From IMG/VR virus record IMGVR_UViG_3300045970_000214: a DNA stretch of 44,753 bases, one strand, 5' to 3'. Source of the DNA: a virus. The position numbers and the translations under genes were made by a program. Below the pieces are notes generated by a model. It was not told where the DNA came from, searched no databases, and saw only the letters and a list, made by a program, of their open reading frames with translations. This document shows, in pieces, positions 12,823 through 44,753 of the stretch; position 1 is the stretch's first letter, and each line of letters begins with the position of its first letter.

Positions 12823-12829
12823 AAACAAA

Positions 12830-12857
12830 GAAGCCCCAATCTCACGAAAGGGGCTTC
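12830..12857. terminator. Hairpin terminator between the convergent arms (better U-tract for the - strand)
   Basis: GAAGCCCC-12 nt-GGGGCTTC. The - strand reads hairpin then TTTGTTTCT. It lies between the stops at 12822 (+) and 12884 (-). Confidence 0.6.
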
Positions 12858-12883
12858 TGCATTTCCTTCCTCTTAAGACAACC

Positions 12884-26554: not shown

Positions 26555-26999
26555 TATAATAATCCTTTATGAGGTAGAAAATATCATCGGGTGGTAGAAA
26601 AGCTTCCTTGATAAAACTCTGTTGTTCCCAGATACCAAACTGATTACCTCTGAGATACTTTCTTGATTTTAATATATTCAAATTATCTTTATATCCGAAT
26701 ATATTAGGATCTGATACAGACCAGATAACTACACCTGGTTTTATACCACGAGCAAAATGAGGTAAAAAACTATCTACTGCAATCCAGATAGAACACCCTG
26801 TAACAAGATCTTTTATATATTTAAGAGAAGGTTGTTTTATAAAAACATCTGTTAATTGCTCTTCTCCATCAAGACCTATTTGGACTACGTTCTTATCTAA
26901 TTCATAAAGACGATGGATAAGTTCTGACCATCTATGATATGTCTTGGCATTAGGCATACCATTACGAAGTTTCTGTGCATAAGGTTGTATGAGTATCAT
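26517..26999 (-). CDS. C-terminal half of a GT9 (heptosyltransferase-like) GT-B glycosyltransferase
   Basis: NAKTYHRWSELI..L.E.DKNVVQIGLDGEE; SLK.I.DLV..C.IWIAVDSFLPHFA; PGVVIWSVSDP. The ATG overlaps the upstream stop (ATGA). Confidence 0.6.
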   Translation of the reverse strand: MILIQPYAQKLRNGMPNAKTYHRWSELIHRLYELDKNVVQIGLDGEEQLTDVFIKQPSLKYIKDLVTGCSIWIAVDSFLPHFARGIKPGVVIWSVSDPNIFGYKDNLNILKSRKYLRGNQFGIWEQQSFIKEAFLPPDDIFYLIKDYYNEHTAGRGEEST

Positions 27000-28597
27000 A
27001 GCAAATACATCCTACGATAAGCTTCTTCTATGGAACCTTTCCAATCTCGTTCCGACATCCAGTCGTAGATATTATCTCCATTGAGTTCAGTAGATCTTTC
27101 GACTGATATGAAGTGAACTCCCATATCTTGAAAAACCTCAGGATAACAAGATCCAAGAACTATGATAGGATATTTCTTTTTAAGTTCTGGGAGGATTCTG
27201 GAGAATACTATATTATCTCCTAGACCTACTCCAAGATGTATCAACTTCATACCCCATTCATTCTCTATTATCTTATTGAATTCTACTTGATCCCAATTAT
27301 AAGCCCATTCCATATCAGGATTCCCAGTCCTAGTACCTCCTGTTCTGGCCTTATAATGATATGTATGTATGGTTGTATCAACGATAAGACGATAACCAGC
27401 AAGTCTTAGACGATGTGAAAATATACTCTCTTCGTGAAAAGCCGCCGGAGACATATTATGTTTATAGTTGGTTATTCCAGCACGATATAAGAAGGAGGAA
27501 TATAACCACTCAACTTCGTATATACCATGATTAGGAGCCCACTGTACATTATTACGATCAAAGAAATGTTCTTTTTTTGTAGCATCTCCAAACACTATCC
27601 TATCTGGTTCATAGACAGCTCCGGCAGACGCTCCTATATCAGTAGAACTCCCTAAGATTTTAACTAATCTTTCTAACACATCAGGTTCAGCTATTGTATC
27701 ATCATCAAGACGCCATACATAATCATAGCCTGATGTGTTAGATAACTGATGTGCTATATGTTGTCCTCTACCTGGAGTGAATACAACTTCCCACTCTATT
27801 CCTTTCTGAGATAGAAGAGGAAGTAAATATCTTCCAACAACATGTTCTCTTACATCCATCTTATTCGGAGAGTCATCATAGATTATTATCTTATCTGGTT
27901 TGACTGTCTGAAATGCAACAGATTGTAATGTAAGCATAAGACAATCATATCTATCTCTTGTAGGGATAGCACAAAGGATTGTCTTTTTATTGCTATATTC
28001 TTTACCTTCCTCCCATGTCATGATAAGGAGATTCGTAGGTTCTTGTGTCGGTGTATCATGAAGAGAACCATCTACGTGCATATATATGTAATAGAAGGAA
28101 GGAAAATCCTTAGCTTTCAGATGATGCAGAACGTGATGTTTTCCCCAGAATCCAGGAAACTCATTATAGGGAGTTGATATAATCAGAGTAGAACAATGTT
28201 TCTTTAACTCTTGTGCTACTTCCTTACCTCTAGCTATATGCTCAAGAATCTCATAAGCTATGATTATGTCATACTTCCTAGTATTAGTTTCTAGGAATTC
28301 TTCTATTCCACTTTGTACAAACTTATGACTAGAGTCTTCGAAATTCTTCTTAGCGAATTCTACTATACCCGCATCATAGTCAACGCCTGTGTAATCTATA
28401 GAAGAAGGAAGTATCTTAGTTCCATATCCAGAAGCACATCCGAACTCAAGAACAGACATCCCTTCTTTTATAAATGTGGCTGCAAACTTATACCTGTTAT
28501 ATTCTCTAGGAAGATTGGTCTCACTAAGTTCTTCCGTATTTCCTATAACAGGTCTTTCCCAATCATTACCTAGTGCATATTGTTCTTCATCTGACAT
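26996..28597 (-). CDS. Tri-domain enzyme: class-I SAM methyltransferase + GT2 glycosyltransferase + N-terminal half of a GT9-like fold
   Basis: MT: VLEFGCASGYG, DIIIAYEILEHI. GT2: ILCAIPTRDRYD, IIIYDDS, WRLDDD. GT9-N: KLIHLGVGLGDNIVFSRILPELKKKYPIIVLG. Confidence 0.8.
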   Translation of the reverse strand: MSDEEQYALGNDWERPVIGNTEELSETNLPREYNRYKFAATFIKEGMSVLEFGCASGYGTKILPSSIDYTGVDYDAGIVEFAKKNFEDSSHKFVQSGIEEFLETNTRKYDIIIAYEILEHIARGKEVAQELKKHCSTLIISTPYNEFPGFWGKHHVLHHLKAKDFPSFYYIYMHVDGSLHDTPTQEPTNLLIMTWEEGKEYSNKKTILCAIPTRDRYDCLMLTLQSVAFQTVKPDKIIIYDDSPNKMDVREHVVGRYLLPLLSQKGIEWEVVFTPGRGQHIAHQLSNTSGYDYVWRLDDDTIAEPDVLERLVKILGSSTDIGASAGAVYEPDRIVFGDATKKEHFFDRNNVQWAPNHGIYEVEWLYSSFLYRAGITNYKHNMSPAAFHEESIFSHRLRLAGYRLIVDTTIHTYHYKARTGGTRTGNPDMEWAYNWDQVEFNKIIENEWGMKLIHLGVGLGDNIVFSRILPELKKKYPIIVLGSCYPEVFQDMGVHFISVERSTELNGDNIYDWMSERDWKGSIEEAYRRMYLL

Positions 28598-28655: not shown

Positions 28656-31600
28656 TTAACTGTACTGTTCTATAACTATAAGTCCCGCTGAGCCTGCACC
28701 ACCACTTCTAAGACCGGAGGTTATAATAAGGGCTCCAGCACCCCCTGCTGCATATCCGTTAGCAACACCACCGTTATTAGAGCTTGTAGTAGGTCCTACT
28801 CCACCACCTCCTAGAGTTGAGTTAGCTCCATTACCTCCATGACCTACTACTTGAGAAGCCATCATACCAAACTCACCTACTCCACCACCTCCTAATACAT
28901 CACCACTGAATCCTATTGGTGCTCCTGCTCCTCCCGCTGCGAATTTACTAGCTACAGTACTTTGAGCACCACCAGATCCTCCTAGACCTCCAGAAGCAGA
29001 TACCACAGCAGTACCAGAGAATACAGTAAGACCTCCAGTAGCTCCAGAAAGGTTTCCTACACCTCCTGCACCACCTGCACCTATTCCAAAGTTATACCAA
29101 GTAGAGGATGAAACAGTCTGTCTATCTTCAGTATAACCTCCTGCACCACCTCCTCCTGCTACTGCACCAGAGGATGCTGTAGTAGAAGATACACCACCAC
29201 CACCTGCGCCAGCACCCCATAATCTTATGAAGATACCAGAAGTCTGAGCAGTTGTTTGAAATGAACCAGTAGCAGTAAGTACAGTCTTTTGTATAAAGGC
29301 TCCTGTTGAGCCAGTACCATTAGAACCAGAGAATCCTGAGTAACCAGAAGATCCATTAGTTCCATTAGACCCACTAGTACCATTAGTACCATTTGATCCA
29401 GAATAACCAGAATAACCAGAAGTTCCTCCACCTCCTCCTATAGTTCTCCATCTAGGATCATAGACATCTGTAAATATAAATTCTGCTTGTCCTCCAGAAG
29501 GTATTGCATATCCTGTATTAACAGCCAAAGCATTTATATAACTACCACTATGAGGATATACATATATGGTATTAGCTGTGATGTTAAATACACGATTTAA
29601 CTGGGATTTTACTGGCAAAGGTAATTTACAAGTACCGTTAGGATAACTGAATTTAATTATCGCATCACGACCTTGAATACGATCAGCATCCCAAGCTGTT
29701 GTTCCTATAGCATTACTAGCAGTATCATATGGAATAGGATAAAGAGTAACTAACCAATTGGATGCACTACTAACACATCTTAATACACTCTGAGGAGTAA
29801 CTGGAATACCGGCATCAACAGCCAGAGCTACGTTATTAACTATAAGAGAACCACCTGTTGGAGGATACACAAAGAATGTATAACCATAAGAATAAGCGGC
29901 AGTTGTCTCATTACCATTCTTGATAGTACATGTAACACCTAGAGAACAAGCTGGTAAACGTACACCCTCATCCTCTGTATTACTTAGAATATCAAGATCT
30001 GTAAAACCTGCTGTTATAGCAGAGGCAGTAGCAGCAGTAGTACCAGCAGAGGAGATACTGGTATAATTTCCAGCTCCTCCGTTGGTTCCACTATAACCAC
30101 TCTTTCCACTATAACCACTAGTACCAGTAGCCCCACTGAAACCACTTATCCCATTGGTTCCACTATAACCACTATAACCACTAGCACCACCTGATCCACC
30201 ACCTTCTGTTAACCATTGTCCTGTGTATTTATACAAGGAGATAGAGGTATTACCAGCTAATACAAAAGGAGCATTAACTGCTAAAGCATTTATACTAGCT
30301 CCAGATCCAGGATATACATTAATCGGAGCTGCCGTAGCATTGAATATAACTGCACGGCCATAATAATCAGATAGATCATTATGTGGGAGATATATACCTT
30401 GACCAGAAGTCCCAGAACTTATCCTAGCTACTTTACCTGGTATTAACGTAGCATTAGATTGATTAGTCCCACCTGCACCTACGTTAATTATATCAACATC
30501 AGCTGCACCAATCAGATTCCACATACTACTACCCATATACCTTAGTCTAATAGACTCATATGGTCGTAGTAGATAAGGAGCATTACCCCCTATCATATCT
30601 ATATAGGCAGTAGCAGTATCAGCATACACCTTAACTACATAACCACCATAATTATATACTTCTCTTATGGTATTAACAGTAGTGCTATTTAGATTAACAC
30701 CAAGAAAATTACCTCCAGCCCCTTGTACTATGGTTACATCAGTTGTTATATTAGCAGAGGTAGCAGCAGTCGTACCAGTAGGAGTTAAAGTACCTGTAGT
30801 AGAACCACCCGCACCATTAGTACCTGAATAACCAGAATATCCAGATGCACCATTAGTCCCATTTGAACCAGAATACCCAGAGACTCCGTTAGTCCCATTA
30901 GAGCCAGAGTATCCAGATACACCGTTCGTTCCATTAGAACCACTATATCCAGAATATCCACTAGTGCTAGTTCCATTGATACCATTAGAACCGGAATACC
31001 CAGAATAACCACTTGATCCATTAGTTCCGTTAGAACCAGAATAGCCACTTGTGCCATTTATTCCATTAGAGCCGGAGAATCCAGAATAACCGCTAGTACC
31101 ATTTGTACCATTAGATCCTGAATAACCACTTCTTCCAGAATATCCAGAGTATCCAGAAGGATCAGAAGGTCCACTAGCACCAGAATATCCAGAGAATCCT
31201 GAAACACCATCTGCTCCATAATAACCTGAATAGCCAGAGAATCCAGAAGCTACGAAATTACCAGGAGCTCCTGAGAAACCAGAATAACCACTTCTTCCGC
31301 TATATCCAGAGAATCCAGAATATCCACTATTACCTATAAGTCCAGAATATCCTGAAAAACCAGAGATACCAGAACCAGAATATCCAGAATATCCACTAAT
31401 ACCAGCAGGACCAGTGAAACCAGAATATCCAGAGATACCAGAAAGACCATTAGAACCTGAATAACCAGAAGGTCCAGAATAACCAGAAGGACTTGTAGCT
31501 CCTGGGAAACCTGAGAATCCTGATATACCAACACCAGAATATCCACTCTTCCCAGAGATACCACTGTATCCGCTATAACCAGAGAATCCACTATAGCCAC

Positions 31601-31808
31601 TAGCACTGCTATAACCAGAATATCCTGAAGGTCCAGAATAACCAGAATAGCCGGAACCCCCGCTCTTACCAGAATATCCTGATACTACATCAAGATTTCC
31701 ATAAGAGTCTACAGCAAGACCTGAGCGAGGTTTTACACCGCCTAATACAGTAGAGGAAGCTACAGGAACTTGTGCTACTATCTCTGGAGTATTATTAAAG
31801 GCACCCAT
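28656..31808 (-). CDS. Collagen-like tail fibre (1050 aa): three Gly-X-Y tracts, four ~90-aa beta modules, C-terminal Gly-rich domain
   Basis: Gly at every third residue over about 300 aa (GYSGYSGPSGYSG...), SNGTNG repeats, repeated (V/I)YP.SG..INALAVN modules, terminal GAGGGG-rich domain. Confidence 0.8.
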   Translation of the reverse strand: MGAFNNTPEIVAQVPVASSTVLGGVKPRSGLAVDSYGNLDVVSGYSGKSGGSGYSGYSGPSGYSGYSSASGYSGFSGYSGYSGISGKSGYSGVGISGFSGFPGATSPSGYSGPSGYSGSNGLSGISGYSGFTGPAGISGYSGYSGSGISGFSGYSGLIGNSGYSGFSGYSGRSGYSGFSGAPGNFVASGFSGYSGYYGADGVSGFSGYSGASGPSDPSGYSGYSGRSGYSGSNGTNGTSGYSGFSGSNGINGTSGYSGSNGTNGSSGYSGYSGSNGINGTSTSGYSGYSGSNGTNGVSGYSGSNGTNGVSGYSGSNGTNGASGYSGYSGTNGAGGSTTGTLTPTGTTAATSANITTDVTIVQGAGGNFLGVNLNSTTVNTIREVYNYGGYVVKVYADTATAYIDMIGGNAPYLLRPYESIRLRYMGSSMWNLIGAADVDIINVGAGGTNQSNATLIPGKVARISSGTSGQGIYLPHNDLSDYYGRAVIFNATAAPINVYPGSGASINALAVNAPFVLAGNTSISLYKYTGQWLTEGGGSGGASGYSGYSGTNGISGFSGATGTSGYSGKSGYSGTNGGAGNYTSISSAGTTAATASAITAGFTDLDILSNTEDEGVRLPACSLGVTCTIKNGNETTAAYSYGYTFFVYPPTGGSLIVNNVALAVDAGIPVTPQSVLRCVSSASNWLVTLYPIPYDTASNAIGTTAWDADRIQGRDAIIKFSYPNGTCKLPLPVKSQLNRVFNITANTIYVYPHSGSYINALAVNTGYAIPSGGQAEFIFTDVYDPRWRTIGGGGGTSGYSGYSGSNGTNGTSGSNGTNGSSGYSGFSGSNGTGSTGAFIQKTVLTATGSFQTTAQTSGIFIRLWGAGAGGGGVSSTTASSGAVAGGGGAGGYTEDRQTVSSSTWYNFGIGAGGAGGVGNLSGATGGLTVFSGTAVVSASGGLGGSGGAQSTVASKFAAGGAGAPIGFSGDVLGGGGVGEFGMMASQVVGHGGNGANSTLGGGGVGPTTSSNNGGVANGYAAGGAGALIITSGLRSGGAGSAGLIVIEQYS
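30800..31685 (-). repeat. Coding tandem repeat (9-nt periodic GYS/GFS/GxS collagen-like triplets, plus 27-36-nt SGSNGTNGxSGYSGY units)
   Basis: Periodicity is visible in DNA (ccagaatatccagaataacc...) and protein. Shorter tracts occur at about 30070-30210 and 29305-29445. Confidence 0.85.
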
Positions 31809-33026: not shown

Positions 33027-33055
33027 GATATGAGTTCCTTACAAGGTACAACAAG

Positions 33056-33087
33056 AAGACCTCCCCATCCTAAGACAGGGAAGTCTT
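33056..33087 (-). terminator. Hairpin just after the MCP gene (leaky terminator or mRNA stabiliser)
   Basis: AAGAC-C-TCCC / GGGA-A-GTCTT, 9 bp with one mismatch and a 12-nt loop; the - strand continues CTTCTTGTTGT. Confidence 0.4.
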
Positions 33088-33097
33088 AAAAGAACTC

Positions 33098-34315: not shown

Positions 34316-35041
34316 TCAAGAGTTAGAAAGATATTTCGTCCAATCCATCTCTTCAGCTTTATCGGAGCCATCAGAGTTCTTAGTAGGAGAAGACGGGTTA
34401 AGAGCGAATTGCAGATCTGAGATATACTTCTGAGCTGCTTTGGCTACCTCTACCGGAGAAGCATCCGGATTAGCCGCTGCAAACTGATTAGCTATCCTAT
34501 TCAGCTCTGCTTTTACTACTGGGTGACTGTAGTTAGGAGCACTTGCAAGTTCATTAGAAGTCAGTTGAGACTTAACACCTCTCTCTAACTTCTTAGACTC
34601 GTAGTCTCCACGTTGATTGATGTAAGTGTCTGTAAGGTTAGTGCTATGTTCTATAGCAGCCTTATAAGAGTTTTGTCCTACAGTTCTGATTATGTCCATC
34701 AGAGCATTGACATCTCCTGAAGTAGCTTTTGTCAATGTCTCTTGTTCTATCCCCCTCGTAAAGTCCATCTTACGAGATACATCATTTAATACCTTAGGAT
34801 CTAATTTGAACTCTGGAGCTTGGATCTCGGAGTTATTAGTGGCATTATCGAACATTTTCTTATAAGCATCAAGGGGATTTTCAGCTGTCATCTCAGTTCC
34901 AGGCATCTTACCGGACTTATCCGTAGTAGGTGCATTATCTGAGAGATTCTCTTTCCCTTGCTTATTAGGATCTTCTCCTTGATTACTCGAAGAAGGTGCT
35001 TCTGGTGTTTTTGCTCTAAACATATCCATAATACCGGCCAT
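34316..35041 (-). CDS. Scaffolding protein candidate (241 aa)
   Basis: Hydrophilic, helical and low in aromatics; located between portal and MCP. Confidence 0.55.
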   Translation of the reverse strand: MAGIMDMFRAKTPEAPSSSNQGEDPNKQGKENLSDNAPTTDKSGKMPGTEMTAENPLDAYKKMFDNATNNSEIQAPEFKLDPKVLNDVSRKMDFTRGIEQETLTKATSGDVNALMDIIRTVGQNSYKAAIEHSTNLTDTYINQRGDYESKKLERGVKSQLTSNELASAPNYSHPVVKAELNRIANQFAAANPDASPVEVAKAAQKYISDLQFALNPSSPTKNSDGSDKAEEMDWTKYLSNS

Positions 35042-35306: not shown

Positions 35307-37325
35307 TTATTGTTTAGTAGGAGTTTGACCAACAGGAGGTGCAGCTGCGGTTGCTGCCGCTTGAACCATAGGAGCCATGTCGGCGGGATTCATTGGCATA
35401 CCAGTCTGAGGATGAACACCTTGTTGCATCTGATTCGCCTGCATCATATTACTCTCTTGTTGTCCTGCATCTGGAGTATATTCCTCAAGACCTCTCACAC
35501 CTAAAAGCTGAGCAAGATGAGCGAACATACCAGGAAGCATTGGACCGTATCTCTGCTGAAGAAGCTGAGATTGTCCAAGGATTTGCATAAGTTGCATGAT
35601 AGAGTCTGTACCAGCGAGTTTACTCTTAGGAGTATAACCATCTGCTACACGGAAGGAGAGAACCTGGGTCTTAAGTTTCTCTATATCTACCTTCTTGACA
35701 GATCCATCTTTCTGAGAGACGACTTCTGCATCCTCTCCATATTGATAGATATTAAGTTTAAGGATCTCTTTCAATGGCATAAAGACTTGGAACTCAAGGG
35801 TGAGAGCTGGTAGACGAAGTCTAGCATCCGCACCAGACATTGTATCATCCCACTCTTTAACACTCTTGTTCCCCTTCTGGAACTTCCCTTGCATAGGATT
35901 GTTAAGACCGGATAACTCCTTTCCGAAGGATACGATAGACATACCATCTTGAAAGGCAGCCTCAGTTCCTCTAGCATCGAAAGGGATCTGATGATATGCA
36001 TCCTGGATTCTACGTGTACCATCTAGGGAATTACTCTTGACAGGTATTTTAGCAGCTGGGACAGGCGCATTAATATCGGCGGGACTAATAAGGTCAGCGT
36101 CATATAAGGCACGATCAGACACAGCCCTACGAGCAGAATTAAAACGGATATTAAATAACGTAGTAGCCGCAGACTGAAACGGAATATTCGATTCAGCAAT
36201 AGACTGGGTTTGATGTCCGAGACCATCTTCAAGAGGTTGACCGAATAGGATAGGAATATAATCATATGCAGATATAATCCTTTCAGCCTGTACAAGCACT
36301 GCATTATTTACAACAACGAACTTCCAGATCTGAGGAGTCTTAGCTTCTGGACCTACTATCTGGAATTCAGAAGGCATAATACGAGCATAGAAACGAAAGA
36401 TCTCAAAGTTACCAGTCTTAATAGTATCCTTAGATTCTTGCTGACCTGTGAGATATGTATACCAGTTCATACCATCAAGAGGTCTCCTGGCATCTATGTA
36501 ATTAGAGACTGTTGGATGAACCCTATAATTCGCAACACTTTCAGGACTTGTGGAGAGATCTCCTGAACTAAGAGCTTCTCTTACATTGAAGGCTTTCCCT
36601 TCTGCAGCTAGCCGATTAAGGAATCTCTTAGTCTTCGTCCTTGATAGAACCTCAACATAACCTGCGTAATCCCCCTCCGCAGATATGTCACCAGGATTCA
36701 CATTATGATCGTAGACTGTGTTATAAGGATCAAGCCGTTTCAGCTTCGTGTATTTAGTAATCGATTTATCGAGCTTCTGTTTCGGACCTTTCTGATTCGA
36801 ATTCATCAGAAGATCGTTCATTATCGAATACTGGGAGACAGAAGTCCAATCAGCTTCGAGTGCTGAGAAATTATACTTCACTCCATCTCGTATGAACATA
36901 AGGAGTTGACGAGCATATCCCCCTAATGTTGCATGATCATCTATGAGAGTTTCAAGTTGCTCAGCCGAGTCTTTATTCTTAGGGTTCGAGACGATAGGAA
37001 AGAGTGGAGATCCTGAGAGAAAAACCTCAGAGAGATAAGCCACCATAGAATCTACTTGAGAGATCACAACAGGAGGAACCGTAGAAGGAAGATTCATTAC
37101 TCCTACTGGGGTTGTAGCAGCATCTATCCCTTGCCCAGTAACTTCACCTGTATGAGGATCTTTATTTGCCTGGAAGCGAGCATAGGCTTGATCTATGGCT
37201 TCCATCTTATTGTAGTATTGGGAGAATTTCTTATGCTCTGTTAGAATCCTCGTAGCGAACTCAAGAATGAGTTTCTGAGAATTTGGCTTCGGGATAACAA
37301 CAGGACTATTAGCTTGAATATCCAT
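35307..37325 (-). CDS. Portal protein (672 aa)
   Basis: Size and position (TerL - 196 aa - this ORF - scaffold - MCP); Q/M/P-rich C-terminal tail. Confidence 0.7.
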   Translation of the reverse strand: MDIQANSPVVIPKPNSQKLILEFATRILTEHKKFSQYYNKMEAIDQAYARFQANKDPHTGEVTGQGIDAATTPVGVMNLPSTVPPVVISQVDSMVAYLSEVFLSGSPLFPIVSNPKNKDSAEQLETLIDDHATLGGYARQLLMFIRDGVKYNFSALEADWTSVSQYSIMNDLLMNSNQKGPKQKLDKSITKYTKLKRLDPYNTVYDHNVNPGDISAEGDYAGYVEVLSRTKTKRFLNRLAAEGKAFNVREALSSGDLSTSPESVANYRVHPTVSNYIDARRPLDGMNWYTYLTGQQESKDTIKTGNFEIFRFYARIMPSEFQIVGPEAKTPQIWKFVVVNNAVLVQAERIISAYDYIPILFGQPLEDGLGHQTQSIAESNIPFQSAATTLFNIRFNSARRAVSDRALYDADLISPADINAPVPAAKIPVKSNSLDGTRRIQDAYHQIPFDARGTEAAFQDGMSIVSFGKELSGLNNPMQGKFQKGNKSVKEWDDTMSGADARLRLPALTLEFQVFMPLKEILKLNIYQYGEDAEVVSQKDGSVKKVDIEKLKTQVLSFRVADGYTPKSKLAGTDSIMQLMQILGQSQLLQQRYGPMLPGMFAHLAQLLGVRGLEEYTPDAGQQESNMMQANQMQQGVHPQTGMPMNPADMAPMVQAAATAAAPPVGQTPTKQ

Positions 37326-37348
37326 TTTGATGCTCCTTGTTTCTTATA

Positions 37349-37939
37349 TTAATCAGGGGAGAAGGGGGAAGACGCTAATGAATCGACCAAGGTTCTGAGT
37401 TCTTTATTATCCTCATGGTCTATCATTTTCTCGTATTCTCCCACAGCCTTAGAATAAGCTACTGCCTGCTTACCCTTTCCATTATACATCTCAACAGCTT
37501 TGTTAGGATCTTGTTGTCCTGTCATGGCGAGCTTAAGGGCACTCAGTTTAGCAAAATCATCTGTGGAAATCATGTCATGGGAAGCTGTGAGAAGTTGATT
37601 CCCAAGCTTAGAAGACACGAGACGAATAGGAGCCATATCTCCCATATCATCTGGTGTGTTAATATATCCATCGAAGAGTTTATTTACGATCTCTCTATTA
37701 CGAGGGTTATTAGCGTAACCATTTACATTATTTCCGAAATCTGGTCTTCCTTCCTTGAGAGCTATTGGAAGGAGTTTCTTGGCAATCTCAGGAGATAGAG
37801 CACCATTCTGCACAGAGATCTTCATAGCCTTCACAAGAGATTCTATATGAGCGACCGGGATCTTCTCTGGGGCAAGGTTCTTCTCTTTATATCCAGGTCT
37901 ATAAAACGGTACTGTTTTTACTTTTTCAAGATCTGCCAT
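37349..37939 (-). CDS. Hypothetical protein between TerL and portal (196 aa)
   Basis: ORF in the operon; only weak lysozyme/SLT-like motif resemblance (see findings). Confidence 0.4.
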   Translation of the reverse strand: MADLEKVKTVPFYRPGYKEKNLAPEKIPVAHIESLVKAMKISVQNGALSPEIAKKLLPIALKEGRPDFGNNVNGYANNPRNREIVNKLFDGYINTPDDMGDMAPIRLVSSKLGNQLLTASHDMISTDDFAKLSALKLAMTGQQDPNKAVEMYNGKGKQAVAYSKAVGEYEKMIDHEDNKELRTLVDSLASSPFSPD

Positions 37940-37949
37940 ATCATCCTCT

Positions 37950-39443
37950 TTAGAAAGGTGTATTCCCTGCTACTACATTACACTTCCCATGATCTATTGT
38001 AACCTTCCTGGTAAGAGTATGGATAAGATGCCAGTACTCATTTCTTATATCAAGACCGTATGCGATAGCATCTAGAAGGTCATCCTTGTTTCCCTCTTTC
38101 TTTCCTATCTTATAAGTCGATGCCTGCCAGACGAAATCTCTTCTTGTCTCAGGGCTATAGAGGAAATATGTCTTTGCATAAAGTTCTTGAATGAATTGAC
38201 GTATACGAGATTCCTTAGTTCTTCCATGAGGCTTAAGAGGAACAACTGTTAGACCAGTTATCTTAAATTTATTAATATAGAATGTGAGCCAGAATCCAAG
38301 AGTCTGCTGATATCCCACATCCTCGACTCCTATGAGACAGCAGTTATACTGTATGGCAAGGGTTATCGTTTTCTCTATGATCTCTGCAGGATCAAGAATA
38401 CCCTTCACAGTCTTAACAACATAACCTTTATTCTGATATTTTAGATGAACTACTATCACATTATCATCTGATGTGTTACGGAATCCAGCAGGATCTATCG
38501 TGATAAAAGAACCATCTGGGTCTAGAAGATCCTCATCTGAAAGGTCACAATCAGGCACAGGATGAGGAAGTATAGAAAGAGCAACACTCTTAGGATCATT
38601 CATCACCTCAGCAAACCATATATGAGCTAATCCAAGAGCCTCATCATGATAGTAAGATTCCATGAGTTCGTCTATTGAGAACAACTCAGGCCATAAAGGT
38701 CTACTAGATTCTAAGATGGCTCCTGTAACCATAGAGACCCAGGAGGACATCTTCTTAAACTTATTGAGGATACACTCCTCAGAATACATATTTCCTACGT
38801 AGATTATGAGACGATTCCCACGAGGAGCTAACGCCTTAAAGATCGTACCGACAAGCTCTGTAAGAAGATTAGTTCTCTCTGTAGGAGATTCGTCATTCTT
38901 CCTTGTTTGTACGTCATCACAGAATATAACATCAGGCCGTTGATTCTGTAAGTTGATACCTCGTATGCCAGCAGACCAGCCACGAGCTACTATGCTAACT
39001 GATCTGTTATGATAAGCTGCTTTCTTAGTATCTGCAGAGTCGATTGCTAGGTTCTCTCTCCAATTCCCATATATAGAGACCATATTAGGAGAGAGAAGAA
39101 TGTTATGAATATCAGCGAGCAGAAGCTCAGCCAAATCTGAGTTAGAACAGACAATGAGGATGAAATTAGCTTTATCATATACTATAAGCCAACAGATTAT
39201 TATTTTTATGAATGTAGTCTTTGCATGACCTCGTGGAAGTCCTAGAGCAAACCTAAGAAGCTTACCCAGATTCTCTTCAGTACGCGTAGTAAGAAGACTC
39301 CACACAGCAACATAAAACATAGGAAGAGCAAATAGACACACGTCTGGAATACATAGACCAGCGAAGAAGTTAATATCTGTTTTACCTCGCTCATAAGCAT
39401 CCCCTAGAGCTACATTAACATCTTGTATTTCAGATTCTAACAT
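37950..39443 (-). CDS. terL: Terminase large subunit
   Basis: Walker A-like GLPRGHAKTT; Walker B VIFCDDVQ; C-terminal nuclease-type region; 497 aa; 14-nt overlap with TerS. Confidence 0.9.
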   Translation of the reverse strand: MLESEIQDVNVALGDAYERGKTDINFFAGLCIPDVCLFALPMFYVAVWSLLTTRTEENLGKLLRFALGLPRGHAKTTFIKIIICWLIVYDKANFILIVCSNSDLAELLLADIHNILLSPNMVSIYGNWRENLAIDSADTKKAAYHNRSVSIVARGWSAGIRGINLQNQRPDVIFCDDVQTRKNDESPTERTNLLTELVGTIFKALAPRGNRLIIYVGNMYSEECILNKFKKMSSWVSMVTGAILESSRPLWPELFSIDELMESYYHDEALGLAHIWFAEVMNDPKSVALSILPHPVPDCDLSDEDLLDPDGSFITIDPAGFRNTSDDNVIVVHLKYQNKGYVVKTVKGILDPAEIIEKTITLAIQYNCCLIGVEDVGYQQTLGFWLTFYINKFKITGLTVVPLKPHGRTKESRIRQFIQELYAKTYFLYSPETRRDFVWQASTYKIGKKEGNKDDLLDAIAYGLDIRNEYWHLIHTLTRKVTIDHGKCNVVAGNTPF

Positions 39444-40095
39444 CTTCTATCTCTATATCTCGCATCCTGACAGGAAGAGGTATTTCTACTATTTCTTCGC
39501 AGGAGTCAAGAAAGGGAATAACTTCTTCAGAGCATCCTTCTGCTTCTGAAGATATTCTTGGACGCTCATTTTGAATCTCCTTCTCTTGCTTAAGGTTCTT
39601 AAAAAGGTTTGTAACACCTTGTGAAGATAGAGGAGCCAGATTTTGACCTTCTATCGCTGTAATTTCATTATCTTTCGTTCGAGTCATAACAGGGGCTATC
39701 TGAATAGCATGACCTGGGAGACTGAGTTGTACTATATTCTGTGTAAAGACTACATTCCCTCCAAGAGGAATTGGGTTCACACGAGAACGTGCGCGATCTT
39801 GACGCTCAGAGATAACACGCAAGGCTCCTACGACATCTCGAAGCTCAGATGCAGGAGCCATATTAAGAACTTGGTCGAGAAGGGCATGCTCCGCTGTGAG
39901 ATATTTCGCAGAGATAGCAAGTTCTTCCTGATCCTTCTCTGCTGTCTTCGTCTGAGCTTCTGCATAGAGATCTCTGAACTCCGCATCCGAGGACATAAGC
40001 TGGGAGATAAGAGCTGGTGAGCATCCTACTATAGAAGCAACATTAGCTTGTTTCAGGCCGGATGCCAGAAGGAGAGCTACTCTTTCTTTATTCAT
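39430..40095 (-). CDS. terS: Terminase small subunit candidate with N-terminal HTH (221 aa)
   Basis: Start moved to MNKERV (AAAGGAG SD 8 nt upstream). HTH-like LKQANVASIVGCSPALISQL; immediately upstream of terL. Confidence 0.6.
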   Translation of the reverse strand: MNKERVALLLASGLKQANVASIVGCSPALISQLMSSDAEFRDLYAEAQTKTAEKDQEELAISAKYLTAEHALLDQVLNMAPASELRDVVGALRVISERQDRARSRVNPIPLGGNVVFTQNIVQLSLPGHAIQIAPVMTRTKDNEITAIEGQNLAPLSSQGVTNLFKNLKQEKEIQNERPRISSEAEGCSEEVIPFLDSCEEIVEIPLPVRMRDIEIEDVRI

Positions 40096-40312
40096 ATAAG
40101 ATCTCCTTTCGGAAATAATAAAAGCTTTCGGAAAAGTGGTTATGAAAAGGATAAGGACATAGTAACATAGATAGAAGAAGAGCAAGAGTGGATTTCCTGG
40201 AAAAGTTTAGGAAAATTTTTTAGAAGCTATTGATAGCTGAGCCACGTGGCCGATCTAAAAAAAGCCCTTAGCCCCCCTTGACTTTTCTTAGCTTTCATGG
40301 TTTTGATAGGCG

Positions 40313-40343
40313 TGAAAAAGCCCCCCTAAACTTCAGGAGGGCT
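40313..40343 (-). terminator. Rho-independent terminator of the 192-aa ORF
   Basis: - strand reads AGCCCTCCT-GAAGTTT-AGGGGGGCT followed by TTTTTC (9-bp stem including one G-U). Confidence 0.65.
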
Positions 40344-40374
40344 ACTAGATCGGGCGATCTATTAGGCGGAAGGG

Positions 40375-40953
40375 TTACATATCGTCCAAAGCATCAACGG
40401 CGCTGCAAGCCTCATCTAAGGCCAAGAGAGGGCGAGAAAAGCGAGTAGCCTGTTCGGGGTTAAGCGTCTTTGTGAAGTCCGAGAGATAGACGCTAAACTT
40501 AGACTTCTTATCTACTGTCTGAAGTGCAAGACCCTTACGATTTGATGCAAGCTCATAGACTGCTGCTTGAACCTTCTCGGACTTCTTAGTAGTCGGCAGC
40601 CAAGCTTTGAAAGCTTTCAAGAAGTCTCGTACAATCGCCAAAGCTTCGCCTGTCTTACCACTACCGGATTCTAGCAGTTCTTCCACGCTTTCCGCTATCT
40701 TCAAACCGTCCTTCAGCGTAGCAGTACCCGATACAAGCTTATTGCGAGCCTGAGCCTTAACAGCGGCAAGAACAGCATCAAAAGCGTATTGAACCTTATC
40801 ATCCTCATATACAGGAAAACCCGCCTCATCATATTCTTTCGGTTCAACTGCTACCCCGAGTTCTGAGAGCAAAGGGAAAAAGATATTAACTTTGCCGACT
40901 TCTTGATATTCGCCATCAACCTTCTTGCTAACTACCATAATAAACTGTTTCAT
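40375..40953 (-). CDS. Stand-alone 192-aa protein of unknown function, with its own promoter and terminator
   Basis: ORF with AAGGAAAG SD. About 50% GC in the two 60-nt lines counted, versus 30% and 42% in two lines counted elsewhere. All five Arg codons checked are CGN. Confidence 0.6.
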   Translation of the reverse strand: MKQFIMVVSKKVDGEYQEVGKVNIFFPLLSELGVAVEPKEYDEAGFPVYEDDKVQYAFDAVLAAVKAQARNKLVSGTATLKDGLKIAESVEELLESGSGKTGEALAIVRDFLKAFKAWLPTTKKSEKVQAAVYELASNRKGLALQTVDKKSKFSVYLSDFTKTLNPEQATRFSRPLLALDEACSAVDALDDM

Positions 40954-41029
40954 GATACGCTTTCCTTTATGATGTGAGTTCCTTTTATCGGGAGGAACCC
41001 TAAACCCGTTTTATTCAACCTATGACTGA

Positions 41030-41058
41030 ATTATAGTTGAGGAATGGGAGGAAAGCAA
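41030..41058 (-). promoter_or_regulatory. Near-consensus sigma70 promoter for the 192-aa ORF
   Basis: - strand reads TTGCTT-17 nt-TATAAT, about 70 nt upstream of the ATG at 40953. Confidence 0.6.
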
Positions 41059-41243
41059 GGAATATTTTCATTTATTCTAAAATAATTTAGTATCTCATCC
41101 TAATCCGGAAACTACGGAAAGTCCTAAAAGTCGCAAGTTTCCCCCCTGTCCTATGGGTTCCTGAGAGCGACCGAACCCTATCATCTTATATTCACAGAAC
41201 TATAAGCTCTTGCTATCCTATAAGACAAACCCTTGTTTAGAAG

Positions 41244-41277
41244 ATATGTATATATATTTATATTTTTAAAATTTAAA
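41244..41277. other. AT-only tract (possible DNA-unwinding element or curved DNA)
   Basis: atatgtatatatatttatatttttaaaatttaaa, in the largest non-coding region of the genome. Confidence 0.3.
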
Positions 41278-41436
41278 CTCGTACACGTATTGCACCTAGA
41301 ATCTTCTAAAGAACACATCTCTATTATCTACTTAATCAACAGAATATCATAGGAATTGAACCGAACAGACAAAACCGATGGGACAAGGGGTAACTCTTTG
41401 ACTTTTAAGAGTTTTTCAAGTTTTTGACTTTTTTCC

Positions 41437-41465
41437 TTGACTTTTCCAGAATCATCAACTATAAT
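41437..41465 (+). promoter_or_regulatory. Perfect-consensus sigma70 early promoter
   Basis: TTGACT-17 nt-TATAAT, 65 nt upstream of the first early ORF; preceded by two more TTGACTTTT boxes. Confidence 0.7.
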
Positions 41466-41472
41466 AATATAT

Positions 41473-41488
41473 GGGATTGCAGAATCCC
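41473..41488 (+). promoter_or_regulatory. Palindrome GGGATT-gcag-AATCCC at the predicted early transcription start (operator or 5' hairpin)
   Basis: Perfect 6-bp inverted repeat starting 8 nt after the -10 hexamer. Confidence 0.45.
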
Positions 41489-41529
41489 AGACAAGGGTAT
41501 ATTCTAAACCACGGAAAGGATAATAGAAA

Positions 41530-41736
41530 ATGGATCTCTCAAAGCAAAACCTTCTAATGATCGAGATAGATCAGGATTTGAAAAAGATAATAGAACAGTA
41601 TGAGAATGGATTGATAACATCAAGAGAACTCTGCTATGCGATACGGAAGATAGAATGGAAGCTTCCTGCGCCAAGAGTAGGCGAGATAGATCGTAACACC
41701 GGACTAAAAATAGAATCCCTCCCAACGAAATCCTAA
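41530..41736 (+). CDS. First early protein (68 aa), unknown function
   Basis: SD-like ggaaagga upstream; first ORF after the early promoter. Confidence 0.5.
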   Translation: MDLSKQNLLMIEIDQDLKKIIEQYENGLITSRELCYAIRKIEWKLPAPRVGEIDRNTGLKIESLPTKS

Positions 41737-41763
41737 GCTTCAAACAAATAGAAGGAAGATATA

Positions 41764-42255
41764 ATGAACACCCTAATAATGAAACAAGATGATGATGAGT
41801 TTAAGATAATCCCCCTTAATAAGTATCCGAAAGGAATCTCTTTCAAAGAGACGGATAGACTAAATAAAACAATATCCCCTGATCTCTTGATAACATACAA
41901 TGATCTCATAAGCAAGAACTGGAACTTCTACGCTGTAGAAGCTAAGAGAGGTCGTTGCTATTATGAGACAAAGATCATAACAATTCCAATCTGGGCTATG
42001 AATAAAGGCGCAGAGTATATGGAGTGGTATGTAGCGCATGAAATGGCTCATGCTATATGCTTTAATAGGAAACAGTTCTCAGCTAATCATGGGATACTCT
42101 TTATGCGTGCTCTTATTGAGATATGTCCTTCTAGAAGCATACATCACGAGATAGGATATAAACCAAGAAATGCTATGGCTGCAGGAATAACAGCAATGGC
42201 TCAATCTCTCAGAGATAATCCTGCTAACCTTCAATATAATGATGTGGAGATCTAA
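41764..42255 (+). CDS. SprT-like zinc metalloprotease (HExxH)
   Basis: YYETKIITIP...EWYVAHEMAHAICF...ANHGILF matches the SprT-type HEMxH...HG arrangement. Confidence 0.6.
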   Translation: MNTLIMKQDDDEFKIIPLNKYPKGISFKETDRLNKTISPDLLITYNDLISKNWNFYAVEAKRGRCYYETKIITIPIWAMNKGAEYMEWYVAHEMAHAICFNRKQFSANHGILFMRALIEICPSRSIHHEIGYKPRNAMAAGITAMAQSLRDNPANLQYNDVEI

Positions 42256-42256
42256 A

Positions 42257-42439
42257 ATGAATCAAGATACTAATTGTAATGATGTTCTAAGAGTAGAAGT
42301 CTTAGTGAATGGTAAGAAATATTTTATCATGGAAGAGACAGTAAACACACAAAAAGACTTCTATCAATGGCAAACTAGAATTATGAGCACAGTAGAATCT
42401 ATAAAACTGGCTGATATATCTAGATTCAAACCTGTATAA
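42257..42439 (+). CDS. Hypothetical early protein (60 aa)
   Basis: ATG at 42257 lies 1 nt after the upstream stop, with GGAG 8 nt upstream. Confidence 0.45.
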   Translation: MNQDTNCNDVLRVEVLVNGKKYFIMEETVNTQKDFYQWQTRIMSTVESIKLADISRFKPV

Positions 42440-42456
42440 ACGGAGAAAAGTAGATC

Positions 42457-42747
42457 ATGGAATTCAAATTAGGTGACTCTGTAATCCTAGCTTCAGACCT
42501 TGCTTCTCCTATCATATCTCATGAGGGAACAATAACAAAGCTCTCAAAACAGAAGGATATAGCTTGGATAGACGGACATCATAGACCAGAAGATTGCATC
42601 TATTCAGCATATCTCTGGCCTATGGAATATAAGGAAGAACTCATAGCAGTCCTTACAGAAAGAGCCTTCCTTAAGAAGAAATATGAGGATTCTATGGCTC
42701 TGATCTATCAGCTCTCAAATAAGATCACAAATGCAAGGAAAGGATAA
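42457..42747 (+). CDS. Hypothetical early protein (96 aa)
   Basis: ORF with upstream ggagaaaag. Confidence 0.5.
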   Translation: MEFKLGDSVILASDLASPIISHEGTITKLSKQKDIAWIDGHHRPEDCIYSAYLWPMEYKEELIAVLTERAFLKKKYEDSMALIYQLSNKITNARKG

Positions 42748-42751
42748 GATC

Positions 42752-43090
42752 ATGAGACCCTCTCAAGGTGGTATCTATACCCTTAATACCATAATGACAA
42801 AACTTGAATTATCTGATAGTCCTTGTCTCATGGTAGAGATAGATGGGAGAATGTGTCCGATACAAGACTCCCATATCTCACAAGATGATCTTCTAGGAAT
42901 AGAAGGTTTTAAATTTACATCATGGAGATATAAATACACAACGCATGAATGGGTTCCTGTCTTTCATGCTCTTGACTCATCTTATGTAATGGCATATATG
43001 ACAAAAGAGCTTCTGAAAGAGGATTGGAGAACAGAGGAAGATGATACATATTGGATAGTTCCGAAAGCATATCCCCGCTCACAAAGCTAA
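42752..43090 (+). CDS. Hypothetical early protein (112 aa)
   Basis: ATG at 42752 with upstream aaggaaagga; the track start at 42731 overlaps the previous ORF. Confidence 0.5.
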   Translation: MRPSQGGIYTLNTIMTKLELSDSPCLMVEIDGRMCPIQDSHISQDDLLGIEGFKFTSWRYKYTTHEWVPVFHALDSSYVMAYMTKELLKEDWRTEEDDTYWIVPKAYPRSQS

Positions 43091-43108
43091 TCTCGGAAAG
43101 GAAATAGA

Positions 43109-44287
43109 ATGAATCTCTACAGAAAGATGTATCAGGAAACAAAGACTCTTGCAGCTTGCCCTATCACAGGGATTGTAATAAGAATAGATATTCCAAGAAT
43201 CTCAATCGGTAAGATCCTAGAATATCCGAATCCCTTCTCAGTCTTTGAGAATGCTCAAGGAATAGCAAAGCTTGAATTCATAGAACAGAACAAGATACCG
43301 CCTACTATCCTATCAGGAGTTCTTCTCTCAGTATGGAATCATTTCCATCTCATAGAAGATCATCTAACAGGGATTCAAAGGAATGAGATTCTTATACCTG
43401 TTCCTCCATATCATCTAATATCCGCTATACGATTCTTCTCAGATATAACAATGAAAGAATCGTATATGCTTCCACGAATCTCATTAGATAGCGAACAGAT
43501 AAGAGATTCCTCGATTCTTGATGTTGTAAGGAACTATACTCTTACCTGTAAACAGACTCTTTCCCCAGATCAAGCATATTCGGAACAGTCATCAAGAGTC
43601 CTTTCCTACACTAAGATCAATAAGGCTACAAAGAGGGATTCTATAACATCTGAGCTAAGGAATAAGGCAAAGGATCTAGTAAACACCTTAGCAAATGAGA
43701 GCGAACTCAGCCCGAAACTTCTCTCAATCCTTCGCTTAATATGCCAAAAGAATAACCTTATAACCCTTCACTATACAATACGAGATAAAGTAATCTCAAG
43801 ACTTGAGGGTATAAACACAATCGCATCAATCGCATTGATTGATATTCTAAAGAATGTGGAAAAGAATCTCTCGACTGCTGAAAGACTATTCAAGCAGGAA
43901 GATGATGAGAAGATGGATTCTATCTTCCCTGATATTCCTTCCCTTCCTGAGAAGAAAAAGACATTGAAAGAACTCTTACAAGAGAGGATAATAGGAGTTC
44001 CTCCTAAAGAGAGTATAGAAGATGATGAGGAAGATGAAATAGAAGAACAAGAATCCTTTACATCTTTTAGGAATCAGATAACATTCCTTCATGGGGATTG
44101 TAAGAATTGCGACTATGACATATCAGATTGTCCTTCGATTGGATTCTGTTCCTTCCTAGAAGATGAGAAAGAGGAGAAAGCAATTCAAACAAGACATATG
44201 ATGCTTGAGATAGGAGCTGAGATGGGTATTATCTCTAAGGAAATGATGGAAGAAGAACAGGAGCATGATAATGCAAACACGTTCTGA
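43109..44287 (+). CDS. Large early protein (392 aa) with acidic C-terminal third and a Cys cluster (HGDCKNCDYDISDCPSIGFC)
   Basis: Long ORF; no family recognised. Confidence 0.55.
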   Translation: MNLYRKMYQETKTLAACPITGIVIRIDIPRISIGKILEYPNPFSVFENAQGIAKLEFIEQNKIPPTILSGVLLSVWNHFHLIEDHLTGIQRNEILIPVPPYHLISAIRFFSDITMKESYMLPRISLDSEQIRDSSILDVVRNYTLTCKQTLSPDQAYSEQSSRVLSYTKINKATKRDSITSELRNKAKDLVNTLANESELSPKLLSILRLICQKNNLITLHYTIRDKVISRLEGINTIASIALIDILKNVEKNLSTAERLFKQEDDEKMDSIFPDIPSLPEKKKTLKELLQERIIGVPPKESIEDDEEDEIEEQESFTSFRNQITFLHGDCKNCDYDISDCPSIGFCSFLEDEKEEKAIQTRHMMLEIGAEMGIISKEMMEEEQEHDNANTF

Positions 44288-44603
44288 TCTATCATTCACA
44301 ATAACAGATGATTTCGGGAACAAGCTCCCAGATATAAAGAGAGCCTTCCTTGCCGCAGTCTATATAACGAAATACGATTATGAACTCGGAACTGTGATAT
44401 ATCCTTCACAGAAATACAAGAGTTCTAGAATCTATTCCCTCTATTATAACGCAACTTTGAGGAACCTTCTCGAAAAGGAACAATGTGTTAAGTGCATAGT
44501 ATCCTTCCAACAGAGAACACACGGGGATTATGCAATAGCAAGGATATTCGAGGATGTTCCTTCAGTAGATAATCGGACAATGACCCACGAGGAAAGAGTA
44601 TAA
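44265..44603 (+). CDS. Hypothetical early protein (112 aa; alternative start 44271)
   Basis: ORF overlapping the upstream stop by 23 nt. Confidence 0.5.
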   Translation: MIMQTRSDLSFTITDDFGNKLPDIKRAFLAAVYITKYDYELGTVIYPSQKYKSSRIYSLYYNATLRNLLEKEQCVKCIVSFQQRTHGDYAIARIFEDVPSVDNRTMTHEERV

Positions 44604-44607
44604 TATC

Positions 44608-44753
44608 ATGACTTCACTAAGCGAACTGATAGCACAAAAGAAACTTCAGACAATGGAACGAGTCTTAAATAATCCTAAGGCTTCTCTTGCTGAAGTTATA
44701 GCAATGAGGAAATCTCTTTCTGAGATAGATAAAGATAAAGAAGTTCCACAAGA
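44608..44753 (+). CDS. 5' end of the SF1 helicase gene; continues across the junction into 27..1856
   Basis: ATG at 44608 lies 4 nt after the stop of the preceding ORF and has ggaaagag upstream. It reads MTSLSELIAQKKLQT then MERV..., in frame with ORF 27..1856. On the circular molecule the full gene is 624 codons. Confidence 0.7.
   Translation, partial: MTSLSELIAQKKLQTMERVLNNPKASLAEVIAMRKSLSEIDKDKEVPQ
44627..44753. repeat. Terminal overlap copy B (identical to 1-127)
   Basis: Same as copy A; the overlap lies inside a coding region. Confidence 0.95.

Follow-up and report, generated by a model that had tools for sequence, protein, structure and literature searches.

A promoter-gene-terminator cassette at the early/late boundary of a podophage genome very probably carries a highly expressed early core gene rather than a moron

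Is a single gene that has its own promoter and terminator, and whose composition differs from that of its flanks, a piece of foreign cargo or a heavily used part of the phage itself? This question is raised by an open reading frame of 192 amino acids (ORF192; 40375-40953, minus strand; 21.1 kDa, pI 5.2) in the IMG/VR virus record IMGVR_UViG_3300045970_000214. The window analyzed here is a whole phage contig of 44,753 bp, in which the plus-strand genes (41.5-44.6 kb and 0-12.8 kb) form the early arm and the minus-strand genes (40.2-12.9 kb) form the late arm; ORF192 lies between the two. The initial annotation, made from the sequence alone, had delimited this reading frame correctly and had left two explanations for it, a recently acquired moron or a very highly expressed gene. 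Our analysis argues strongly for the second: ORF192 is very probably a core, early and highly expressed gene and not a moron, because its position is conserved and its codon bias recurs in the orthologs. The start codon is right as well, since the N-terminus MKQFIMVVSKK aligns with MKSYxMEVSKK of the orthologous proteins.

No similarity of the window to known phages was found at the DNA level. By identity of the large terminase subunit TerL, the nearest described phages are EBPR podovirus 3 (65%), Polaromonas phage Tiera (53%) and the Pseudomonas 119X/PaP2/PaMx41 group (42%), i.e. Jamesmcgillvirus of the family Fredfastierviridae. ORF192 is a new member of an existing family without characterized function, PHROG 15550 (phrog_15550, E = 5.1e-12, residues 8-173), and its orthologs comprise ORF1/gp1 of PaMx41, gp01 of 119X, p01 of PaP2 and Tiera_055. 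The tblastn matches show 37% identity in Tiera (E = 1e-22) and 28% in the Pseudomonas phages (E ~4e-8), and those to Tiera, 119X, PaP2 and the PaMx phages cover 86-92% of ORF192. Some ortholog records annotate upstream starts that add 20-50 residues, the homologous region being about equal in size. Orthologs are present in Tiera and in 16 Jamesmcgillvirus records, and the cultured relatives infect Gamma- and Betaproteobacteria (Pseudomonas and Polaromonas). A collection of 5.8 billion proteins yielded 252 relatives, and those listed are 186-199 residues long and carry neither a Pfam domain nor a meaningful name. An exhaustive profile search returned 236 clusters at 50% identity, in which nearly all full-length members have about 190-240 residues and no fused domain; a profile search of the 5.8 billion proteins likewise revealed neither fused domains nor informative names. 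To one label from JGI, "FGAM synthase-like", Pfam lends no support. In the literature we found no assignment of function to the PHROG 15550/PaMx41 gp1 family.

Analysis of the genomic neighborhood reveals how firmly the gene is fixed in place. We compared 25 metagenomic loci, of which 24 come from IMG/VR and one was found via a family member 29% identical to ORF192 (an IMG/VR search with a second divergent member returned no locus); counts of regulatory elements given below cover 20 of the loci, codon counts of orthologs cover 19, and residue statistics refer to 51 diverse family members. The order early arm (on the opposite strand), ORF192, TerS (small terminase subunit), TerL, portal is found in 25/25 of the metagenomic loci, and an ortholog exists in every cultured relative whose record covers the region. 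In Tiera the order early arm/ortholog/TerS becomes apparent after joining the ends of the record. Identity of ORF192 to its relatives tracks that of TerL and portal and exceeds that of TerS: at the metagenomic locus L003 it reaches 70% (TerL 69%, portal 56%), and in 119X 28% (TerL 42%, portal 37%). Among 185,579 bacterial and archaeal species genomes (one per species) no relative was detected. ORF192 thus appears, by comparison of sequences, to be a vertically inherited core gene that defines its clade.

These observations leave very little room for the idea that the cassette is recently acquired, foreign accessory cargo. The promoter-ORF-terminator architecture and a composition unlike that of the flanks do recall lambda morons such as bor and lom, which are likewise single ORFs with an autonomous promoter and terminator. 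Morons, however, are not expected to occupy an identical locus in all metagenomic and all covering cultured relatives, including Tiera and Jamesmcgillvirus, nor to be inherited vertically and independently of the host, and no relative occurs in the bacterial genomes searched; further, the unusual codon bias is shared by the orthologs and by the phage's own capsid gene, which ties composition to expression level. The survey of presence and absence that the initial annotation proposed found universal conservation, which refutes the moron; we regard that explanation as hardly credible.

The composition of the gene can be examined directly. The GC content of ORF192 is 45.8% vs 40.3% for the genome, so that the elevation reported initially is real, although the figure of about 50% is too high. 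All five arginine codons are indeed CGN and none is AGR, which has a chance probability of about 0.007 given the genome share of 37% CGN. The GC content at third codon positions (GC3) is 0.435 vs 0.323 +/- 0.032 in a resampled null (p = 4e-4). When genes were scored by log-likelihood for capsid-like codon choice, ORF192 took rank 3 among 47 (z = 6.1), preceded only by the capsid gene itself and by ORF 6623-7117. The same signature recurs outside the window: orthologs use 96 CGN and 6 AGR codons for arginine, vs 378 CGN and 420 AGR in the neighboring genes, and ortholog GC3 exceeds that of the neighbors in 18/19 loci. Of the two initial explanations, it is therefore the very highly expressed gene that these capsid-like codon preferences, repeated at nearly all orthologous loci, favor. 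The composition would then reflect expression level and not foreign origin, and judging from codon usage the product is probably among the most abundant phage proteins in the infected cell.

How is such a gene transcribed? The cassette is a real, self-contained promoter-gene-terminator unit. The sigma-70-type promoter (41030-41058, minus strand) consists of TTGCTT (41058-41053), a 17-nt spacer and TATAAT (41035-41030). Its position and spacing are as first described, but the label "near-consensus" does not hold: the -35 box agrees with TTGACA at 3/6 positions only and the whole promoter scores 9/12. Matches of this level are common by chance (40 found vs 23.5 expected in 8.7 kb), and the tool used to scan 36000-44753 did not list this one. 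The promoter is nevertheless credible because of its likeness to the main early promoter and because promoters of 10-11/12 occur at orthologous loci. It shares 73% identity over 33 nt with the inversely oriented main early promoter (41433-41465), and the two have in common TTCCTTG at the -35 box and TCAACTATAAT at the -10 box. The early promoter is the last member of a divergent cluster at the head of the early arm (41395-41465, plus strand), which is built of three T(C/T)TTTGACTTTT boxes in tandem; this last box, TTGACT-17-TATAAT (41437-41465, 11/12), drives the early arm. By this resemblance, the cassette promoter (41030-41062) can be regarded as an inverted paralog of the early promoter and hence as a member of the early promoter class. 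At the orthologous loci a promoter of 10-11/12 stands at the equivalent site in 17/20 cases, 16 of them with an exact TTGACA, and mostly follows the pattern TTGACA-16/17-TAnnAT. The regulatory anatomy is thus cleaner in the relatives than in the window.

Downstream of the promoter, a 5' untranslated leader of about 70 nt (40954-41023, minus strand) contains a stem-loop (~41000-40976) and the ribosome-binding site AAGGAAAG (40967-40960, minus strand), the latter being where the initial annotation had placed a Shine-Dalgarno sequence. A stem-loop at the 5' end of a transcript is an arrangement known to stabilize mRNAs. In 16/20 relatives a stem-loop of varying sequence begins no more than a few nucleotides away from where the transcript is predicted to start (mean z = -2.0); the leader hairpin of the window sits about 24 nt further downstream than in relatives. 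At the other end, the proposed intrinsic terminator is fully borne out (40313-40343, minus strand): a GC-rich stem formed by AGCCCTCCT (40343-40335) and AGGGGGGCT (40327-40319), with 9 pairs including one G-U, encloses a 7-nt loop and is followed by TTTTTCA (-15.6 kcal/mol). It is the first entry returned by the tool used to scan 36000-44753, and the only site in the 44.7-kb window that passes a strict scan demanding a hairpin of -9 kcal/mol or better and at least five T immediately after it. A hairpin followed by six or seven T lies downstream of the ortholog in 18/20 loci. With a promoter and a terminator of its own, the cassette is transcriptionally insulated as was initially claimed. Scans of the region with Rfam models and for tRNAs gave no match. 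Elsewhere in the window, strong hairpins whose T tracts are interrupted are found after the capsid gene (33027-33097, minus strand; -29 kcal/mol over the gap as a whole) and in the gap 12823-12883, where the two arms converge; these are probably further terminators overlooked by the strict scan.

The initial expectation that the gene is expressed early finds indirect support, from the paralogy of its promoter to the early promoter and from PaMx41, where the orthologous ORF1/gp01 (362-1000, minus strand) has been described as an "early-stage gene, unknown protein" (PMC13160051, 2026 preprint). According to that preprint, the early, middle and late classes of PaMx41 genes are based on the northern blots of Cruz-Plancarte et al. 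2016. The GenBank record of PaMx41 annotates a terminator at 307-345, directly after ORF1, and further terminators after the capsid gene and ORF31. As ORF31 is the ortholog of ORF 6623-7117, the PaMx41 genes followed by these terminators are the orthologs of the three most codon-biased genes of the window. Orthologs in PaMx41, 119X, PaP2 and Tiera share with ORF192 homology over nearly the full length, a terminator after the gene and a place between the early arm and TerS. The Pseudomonas phages differ in arrangement: in L002, L029 (119X) and L032 (PaMx41) the gene and the non-coding block downstream of it have an inverted orientation with respect to TerS and occupy the left end of the record, and three small co-oriented ORFs precede the gene, making a four-gene leftward unit instead of a single-gene cassette. 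In 119X and PaMx41 the gene is accordingly divergent from TerS and upstream of the early arm.

Could so abundant a product be a component of the virion or of its assembly, e.g. a decoration protein, an internal protein or an assembly chaperone that heads the late arm and is made in capsid-like amounts? In the window clade the gene lies on the late-gene strand directly upstream of the late genes, its codon usage is that of the capsid gene, and the protein is mainly helical and acidic with a conserved C-terminal docking motif, as in scaffolding proteins. Against this, the promoter is of the early type and transcription would terminate before TerS; the PaMx41 ortholog belongs to the early class and does not bear the label "structural protein", which eight other genes carry in the record of authors who characterized the virion; the gene points away from the late arm in 119X and PaMx41; and a typical scaffold gene is already present between portal and capsid (34316-35041). 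A virion or assembly role is therefore very unlikely.

What, then, does the protein do? As claimed initially, it matches nothing recognizable: searches of Pfam, NCBIfam, PADLOC and the PDB, by sequence and with Foldseek, gave no meaningful match. Pfam and NCBIfam returned only the same spurious NodA hit, below the cut-off (E = 0.14 in Pfam), and Pfam searches with the 51 diverse members revealed no recurrent family. PADLOC, whose library models defense systems and not counter-defense proteins, gave no match at E up to 10. Profile searches of the PDB reached a best E of 0.87 with close relatives and 0.015 with diverse relatives; the latter match, to a "putative exported protein", covers one helix pair only and was rejected. 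An AlphaFold2 model built with 28 sequences has a mean pLDDT (predicted local distance difference test) of 84.7 and a pTM (predicted template modeling score) of 0.50. It consists of one beta-hairpin and nine helices, arranged as a long N-terminal beta-hairpin (residues 2-26), the tip of which varies in length among relatives, a helix (52-71) bearing the most conserved motif AAVKAxARNxL, an extended and highly conserved linker GTxxLKxGxxIA, and a C-terminal helical bundle (90-184). With this model, of pTM 0.50, the best Foldseek match in the PDB had E = 1.1, and none of the 158 matches had E <= 0.001; in BFVD the best match (E = 0.03) was an unnamed protein of 202 residues, probably a member of the same family.

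The pattern of residue conservation is more telling. Besides the start methionine, the positions conserved in at least 80% of the 51 members are all G, P, L, Y, A, R, N, F or K, and no Asp, Glu, His, Cys or Ser position attains this level, which argues against an enzyme, as no catalytic-type residue reaches 80% conservation. No signal-peptide-like or long hydrophobic stretch was seen on reading the ORF192 sequence, and the product would be a soluble, non-enzymatic protein. A basic residue, K or R, stands at eight positions in at least 70% of members (K66, R70, K72, K81, R109, K124, K150 and R171). ORF192 contains 26 Lys and Arg and 29 Asp and Glu residues (net charge -3, pI 5.24), and the family ranges from pI 4.55 to 6.06 and from net charge -1 to -13. 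The C-terminal tip has a character of its own: F, W, Y, M, L or I is found among the last three residues in 45/51 members, and the last eight residues include about 3.1 acidic ones on average and a K or R in only 2/51 members. ORF192 ends with DALDDM, and relatives end with ADF, EDF, DDL or DW.

Such tips resemble those of single-stranded DNA-binding proteins (SSBs), e.g. ...DDDIPF in E. coli SSB and ...DGDF in T7 gp2.5, which serve to dock partner proteins. ORF192 shares with these proteins the acidic tip with a hydrophobic or aromatic end, conserved within the family, as well as a highly expressed, non-structural gene. Unlike the OB-fold (oligonucleotide/oligosaccharide-binding) SSBs, its model has no OB fold, and no SSB is found among the 50 Foldseek PDB matches listed. 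The possibility that ORF192 is the replicative SSB was examined and demoted, since another gene of the window, ORF 6623-7117 (plus strand, 164 residues), located beside a Sak4-like gene, models as an OB fold. Its only family match is phrog_13889, of function not known; the model has pLDDT 88.9 and pTM 0.77, and its top Foldseek matches, although weak (best E 2.7e-3), are PrgE, RPA, mycobacterial SSB and PRD1 P12. On the strength of this model ORF 6623-7117 is probably a single-strand-binding protein. By codon usage it ranks second in likeness to the capsid gene, after the capsid gene itself. It lacks the usual acidic C-terminal tail and has instead a conserved acidic motif at the N-terminus, LDLxAM..ETLDxIPDAPDF.

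Taken as a whole, the best explanation we can offer combines the core early gene with a binding or adaptor mechanism, although for the combination we would not claim even odds. The host sigma-70 RNA polymerase apparently reads a monocistronic ORF192 message from a promoter of the early class, and the strong terminator insulates this unit from the genome terminus and from the late arm that begins with TerS. The amount of product suggests that it is needed early and in stoichiometric rather than catalytic quantity. It might coat or mark phage DNA or a phage nucleoprotein complex, and its acidic, hydrophobic-ended tip might recruit partner enzymes, so as to serve replication, recombination or terminus processing. 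The mechanistic component, i.e. that ORF192 acts in the DNA metabolism of the phage as a binding or adaptor protein used in stoichiometric amounts, is argued by analogy and is a good deal more tentative than the rest. As an early, apparently very abundant, non-enzymatic core protein of a phage that relies on host RNA polymerase, ORF192 resembles phi29 p6 and SPO1 TF1, which are abundant early architectural DNA-binding proteins. It differs from them and from the HU/IHF/TF1 family in that ORF192 shows no similarity of sequence or fold in the PDB profile and Foldseek searches, and neither it nor the 51 members match the Pfam family Bac_DNA_binding.

Several considerations weigh against this explanation. 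The fold matches nothing, so that the function of ORF192 rests on analogy, and the binding to DNA or to partners is a prediction. The protein is mildly acidic overall (pI 5.2), the single-strand-binding role is likely filled by ORF 6623-7117, and several other proteins of the window also end in an acidic and hydrophobic sequence, so that the tip motif is not unique to ORF192. Finally, the "early" label comes from an ortholog of 28% identity, which stands at the end of a four-gene leftward unit.

Much of the same evidence would suit a factor of host takeover or anti-defense, which beside superinfection exclusion is what the initial annotation expected, made immediately and in bulk and acting as a stoichiometric inhibitor or decoy of a conserved host target. 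Variants of this idea include a mimic of the host SSB tip that titrates docking proteins, and an inhibitor of a nucleoid protein or of RNA polymerase. A host-type promoter of the early class, the early expression of the PaMx41 ortholog, the signature of very high expression, a mildly acidic protein whose fold has no known match and an acidic tip with a hydrophobic end would all be in keeping with it, and the gene adjoins the probable genome end, from which one may speculate that it enters the cell among the first DNA. In its host promoter, early time, presumed abundance and possible proximity to a genome end ORF192 is indeed reminiscent of T7 gp0.3 (Ocr). Such a factor would remain in the core if its target were universal; the hosts span Pseudomonas and Polaromonas, so that any target must be conserved in both. 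Yet known anti-defense genes are usually accessory and variable, and ORF192 occurs in all relatives, with a rate of evolution about as slow as that of TerL and portal. Neither is the protein a DNA mimic: with a net charge of -3 and a family pI of 4.6-6.1 it differs from Ocr and ArdA, as it does in being core and not accessory, and DNA mimics are far more acidic than that. The fold (model pTM 0.50) matched neither these proteins nor, in Foldseek, any solved anti-restriction, sponge or polymerase-inhibitor structure, and the defense-system library of PADLOC, in which counter-defense proteins are not modeled, likewise gave nothing. Entry with the first DNA is not a general property either, for 119X and PaMx41 have the gene at one end and the start of the early arm at the other; we have for this reason demoted the cassette as first DNA into the cell to speculation. 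A role in host takeover or anti-defense is accordingly a serious alternative to the binding or adaptor protein, but a rather doubtful one.

The DNA between the cassette and TerS bears on the function as well. A conserved non-coding block (40200-40250, minus strand) contains GCCACGTGGC, TATCAA|TAG and CTAAAAAATTTTCCTAAACTTTTC. Counted up to 40290 it has four parts: a G-rich element with seven T, a GC-rich stretch with CCACGTGG, then TATCAATAG, and CTAAAAAATTTTCCTAAACTTTTC. The G-rich element with its seven T, AAGTCAAGGGGGGCTAAGGGCTTTTTTT (40257-40284, minus strand; repeat D3), duplicates the loop and the 3' arm of the terminator and has no 5' arm of its own; it has a counterpart in Tiera, L003, L004, L008 and L010, and a C-rich or hairpin version precedes the T run in L006, L015 and L026. 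The block was located in L001 (4640-4709) together with L027 (1-45), in L003, L004, L006, L008, L010, L015, L017 and L026, and in L030 (1250-1310). It is conserved as DNA even where the proteins share only about 30-40% identity and is kept in the relative with 29% identity. The window contains a single exact copy of the core TTTTCCTAAACTTTT, and the TTTTCCTAAANTTTT form has an exact match in 8/30 loci, six with one copy and two with a tandem pair. In the window the block is flanked by two boxes, 40200-40211 and 40276-40287, that are inverted repeats of each other.

The record of Tiera, which was rearranged according to PhageTerm, ends with ...GTATCAA and restarts with TAGGCCTCC..., i.e. its boundary falls inside the block, and for this reason the block is probably, as far as this comparison allows, a physical genome end or a packaging site, located near 40230/40229 in the window. 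In 119X and PaMx41 an apparent diverged copy of the block lies downstream of the inverted gene; as both are inverted there, gene and block appear to travel together. The conserved motif proximal to TerS was considered as a sigma-70 promoter and rejected, for there is no -10 box at the right spacing. A read-through of the cassette terminator into the late operon in the manner of lambda Q was likewise dismissed as a general scheme, given the inverted orientation of the unit in Jamesmcgillvirus.

The location of the gene exactly at the early/late boundary invites the further suggestion that ORF192 is an abundant protein that binds DNA in an architectural or regulatory role and so brings about the change from early to late transcription, like phi29 p6 or SPO1 TF1. 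It would bind the early promoters and the block at the terminus and TerS, silence early transcription including its own, and permit late transcription by the host polymerase. The promoters of the window resemble host sigma-70 promoters and a family search of its large proteins found no phage RNA polymerase, so that some phage factor must set the timing; the motif proximal to TerS, TTTTCCTAAACTTTTCC, resembles the -35 context of the early promoters of the window, TTTTCCTTGACTTTTCC; and cassette and block stay linked even when inverted, as in 119X. On the other hand, this likeness of motif and promoter box is confined to the window, since those cassette promoters of relatives that were read have another -35 context. 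Pfam and Foldseek gave no helix-turn-helix, ribbon-helix-helix or HU-like match, and regulators are usually scarce, p6 and TF1 being exceptions. We therefore consider a switch regulator quite unlikely, and return to a stoichiometric binding or adaptor protein as the preferred reading.

Several features of the surrounding genome complete the picture. TerS (39430-40095, minus strand; phrog_16503, terminase, E = 2.9e-20) is the first gene of the late arm. The mechanically called ORF starts at TTG 40185, which adds 30 hydrophobic residues; the N-termini of relatives (MNLERIA..LLA.GLKPS) and an AGGAG ribosome-binding site make ATG 40095 the likely true start. Further products of the minus-strand arm are TerL, portal, a scaffold-like protein, the major capsid protein, tail and internal proteins and a fiber with collagen repeats. 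The latter is probably the tail fiber and corresponds to 28656-31808 (minus strand; 1050 residues), which contains collagen triple-helix repeats and has the lowest GC3 in the genome (0.154). Also in the late arm is a protein unusual amid virion and lysis genes (26996-28597, minus strand; 533 residues), which combines an S-adenosylmethionine-dependent methyltransferase domain with a family-2 glycosyltransferase domain.

The plus-strand arm encodes an SprT-like protein, a Dda-like helicase (27-1856), exonucleases, the Sak4-like annealing protein (5741-6571), a family-A DNA polymerase (7314-9599), a primase (9863-11086) and a dCTP deaminase. The assignment of the first of these (41764-42255, plus strand) comes from a weak match to SprT-like zinc metalloproteases (E = 3e-5, just under the Pfam cut-off), and the gene is conserved in Tiera and several metagenomic relatives. 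Within the same arm a perfect sigma-70 consensus, TTGACA-17-TATAAT (2841-2869, plus strand), lies directly upstream of ORF 2908-3249. The lineage is virulent or non-integrating. Phage Shea, 98.6% identical to PaP2 and hence a carrier of an ORF192 ortholog, reportedly maintains itself as an episome without integrating, with resistance to superinfection (PMC13348215).

Nothing in hand marks ORF192 as mechanistically surprising. Its interest lies in the company it keeps: the genes of the window with the signature of maximal expression are the capsid gene, the probable single-strand-binding protein and ORF192. Members of the lineage are frequent in metagenomes from freshwater and wastewater, and among them are Pseudomonas aeruginosa phages that serve in studies of bacterial immunity. 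PaMx41 has reportedly been engineered with the aid of Cas13a; its gp1 is thus genetically tractable, and the function of the ORF192 family is directly testable there. As a more speculative and rather unlikely extension, the family may represent a class of early, abundant phage proteins not recognized before, whose fold is new and in which an SSB-like docking tip is set on a non-OB body. It would be a hallmark of Fredfastierviridae-like podophages and would link phage DNA, perhaps at the terminus block, to replication, recombination or packaging, or else titrate the host proteins that dock on SSB. With ORF192 as moron or accessory cargo, a false lead has been removed, and the locus illustrates that odd codon usage in a gene with its own promoter and terminator may point to a highly expressed core gene of a phage and not to a foreign one.

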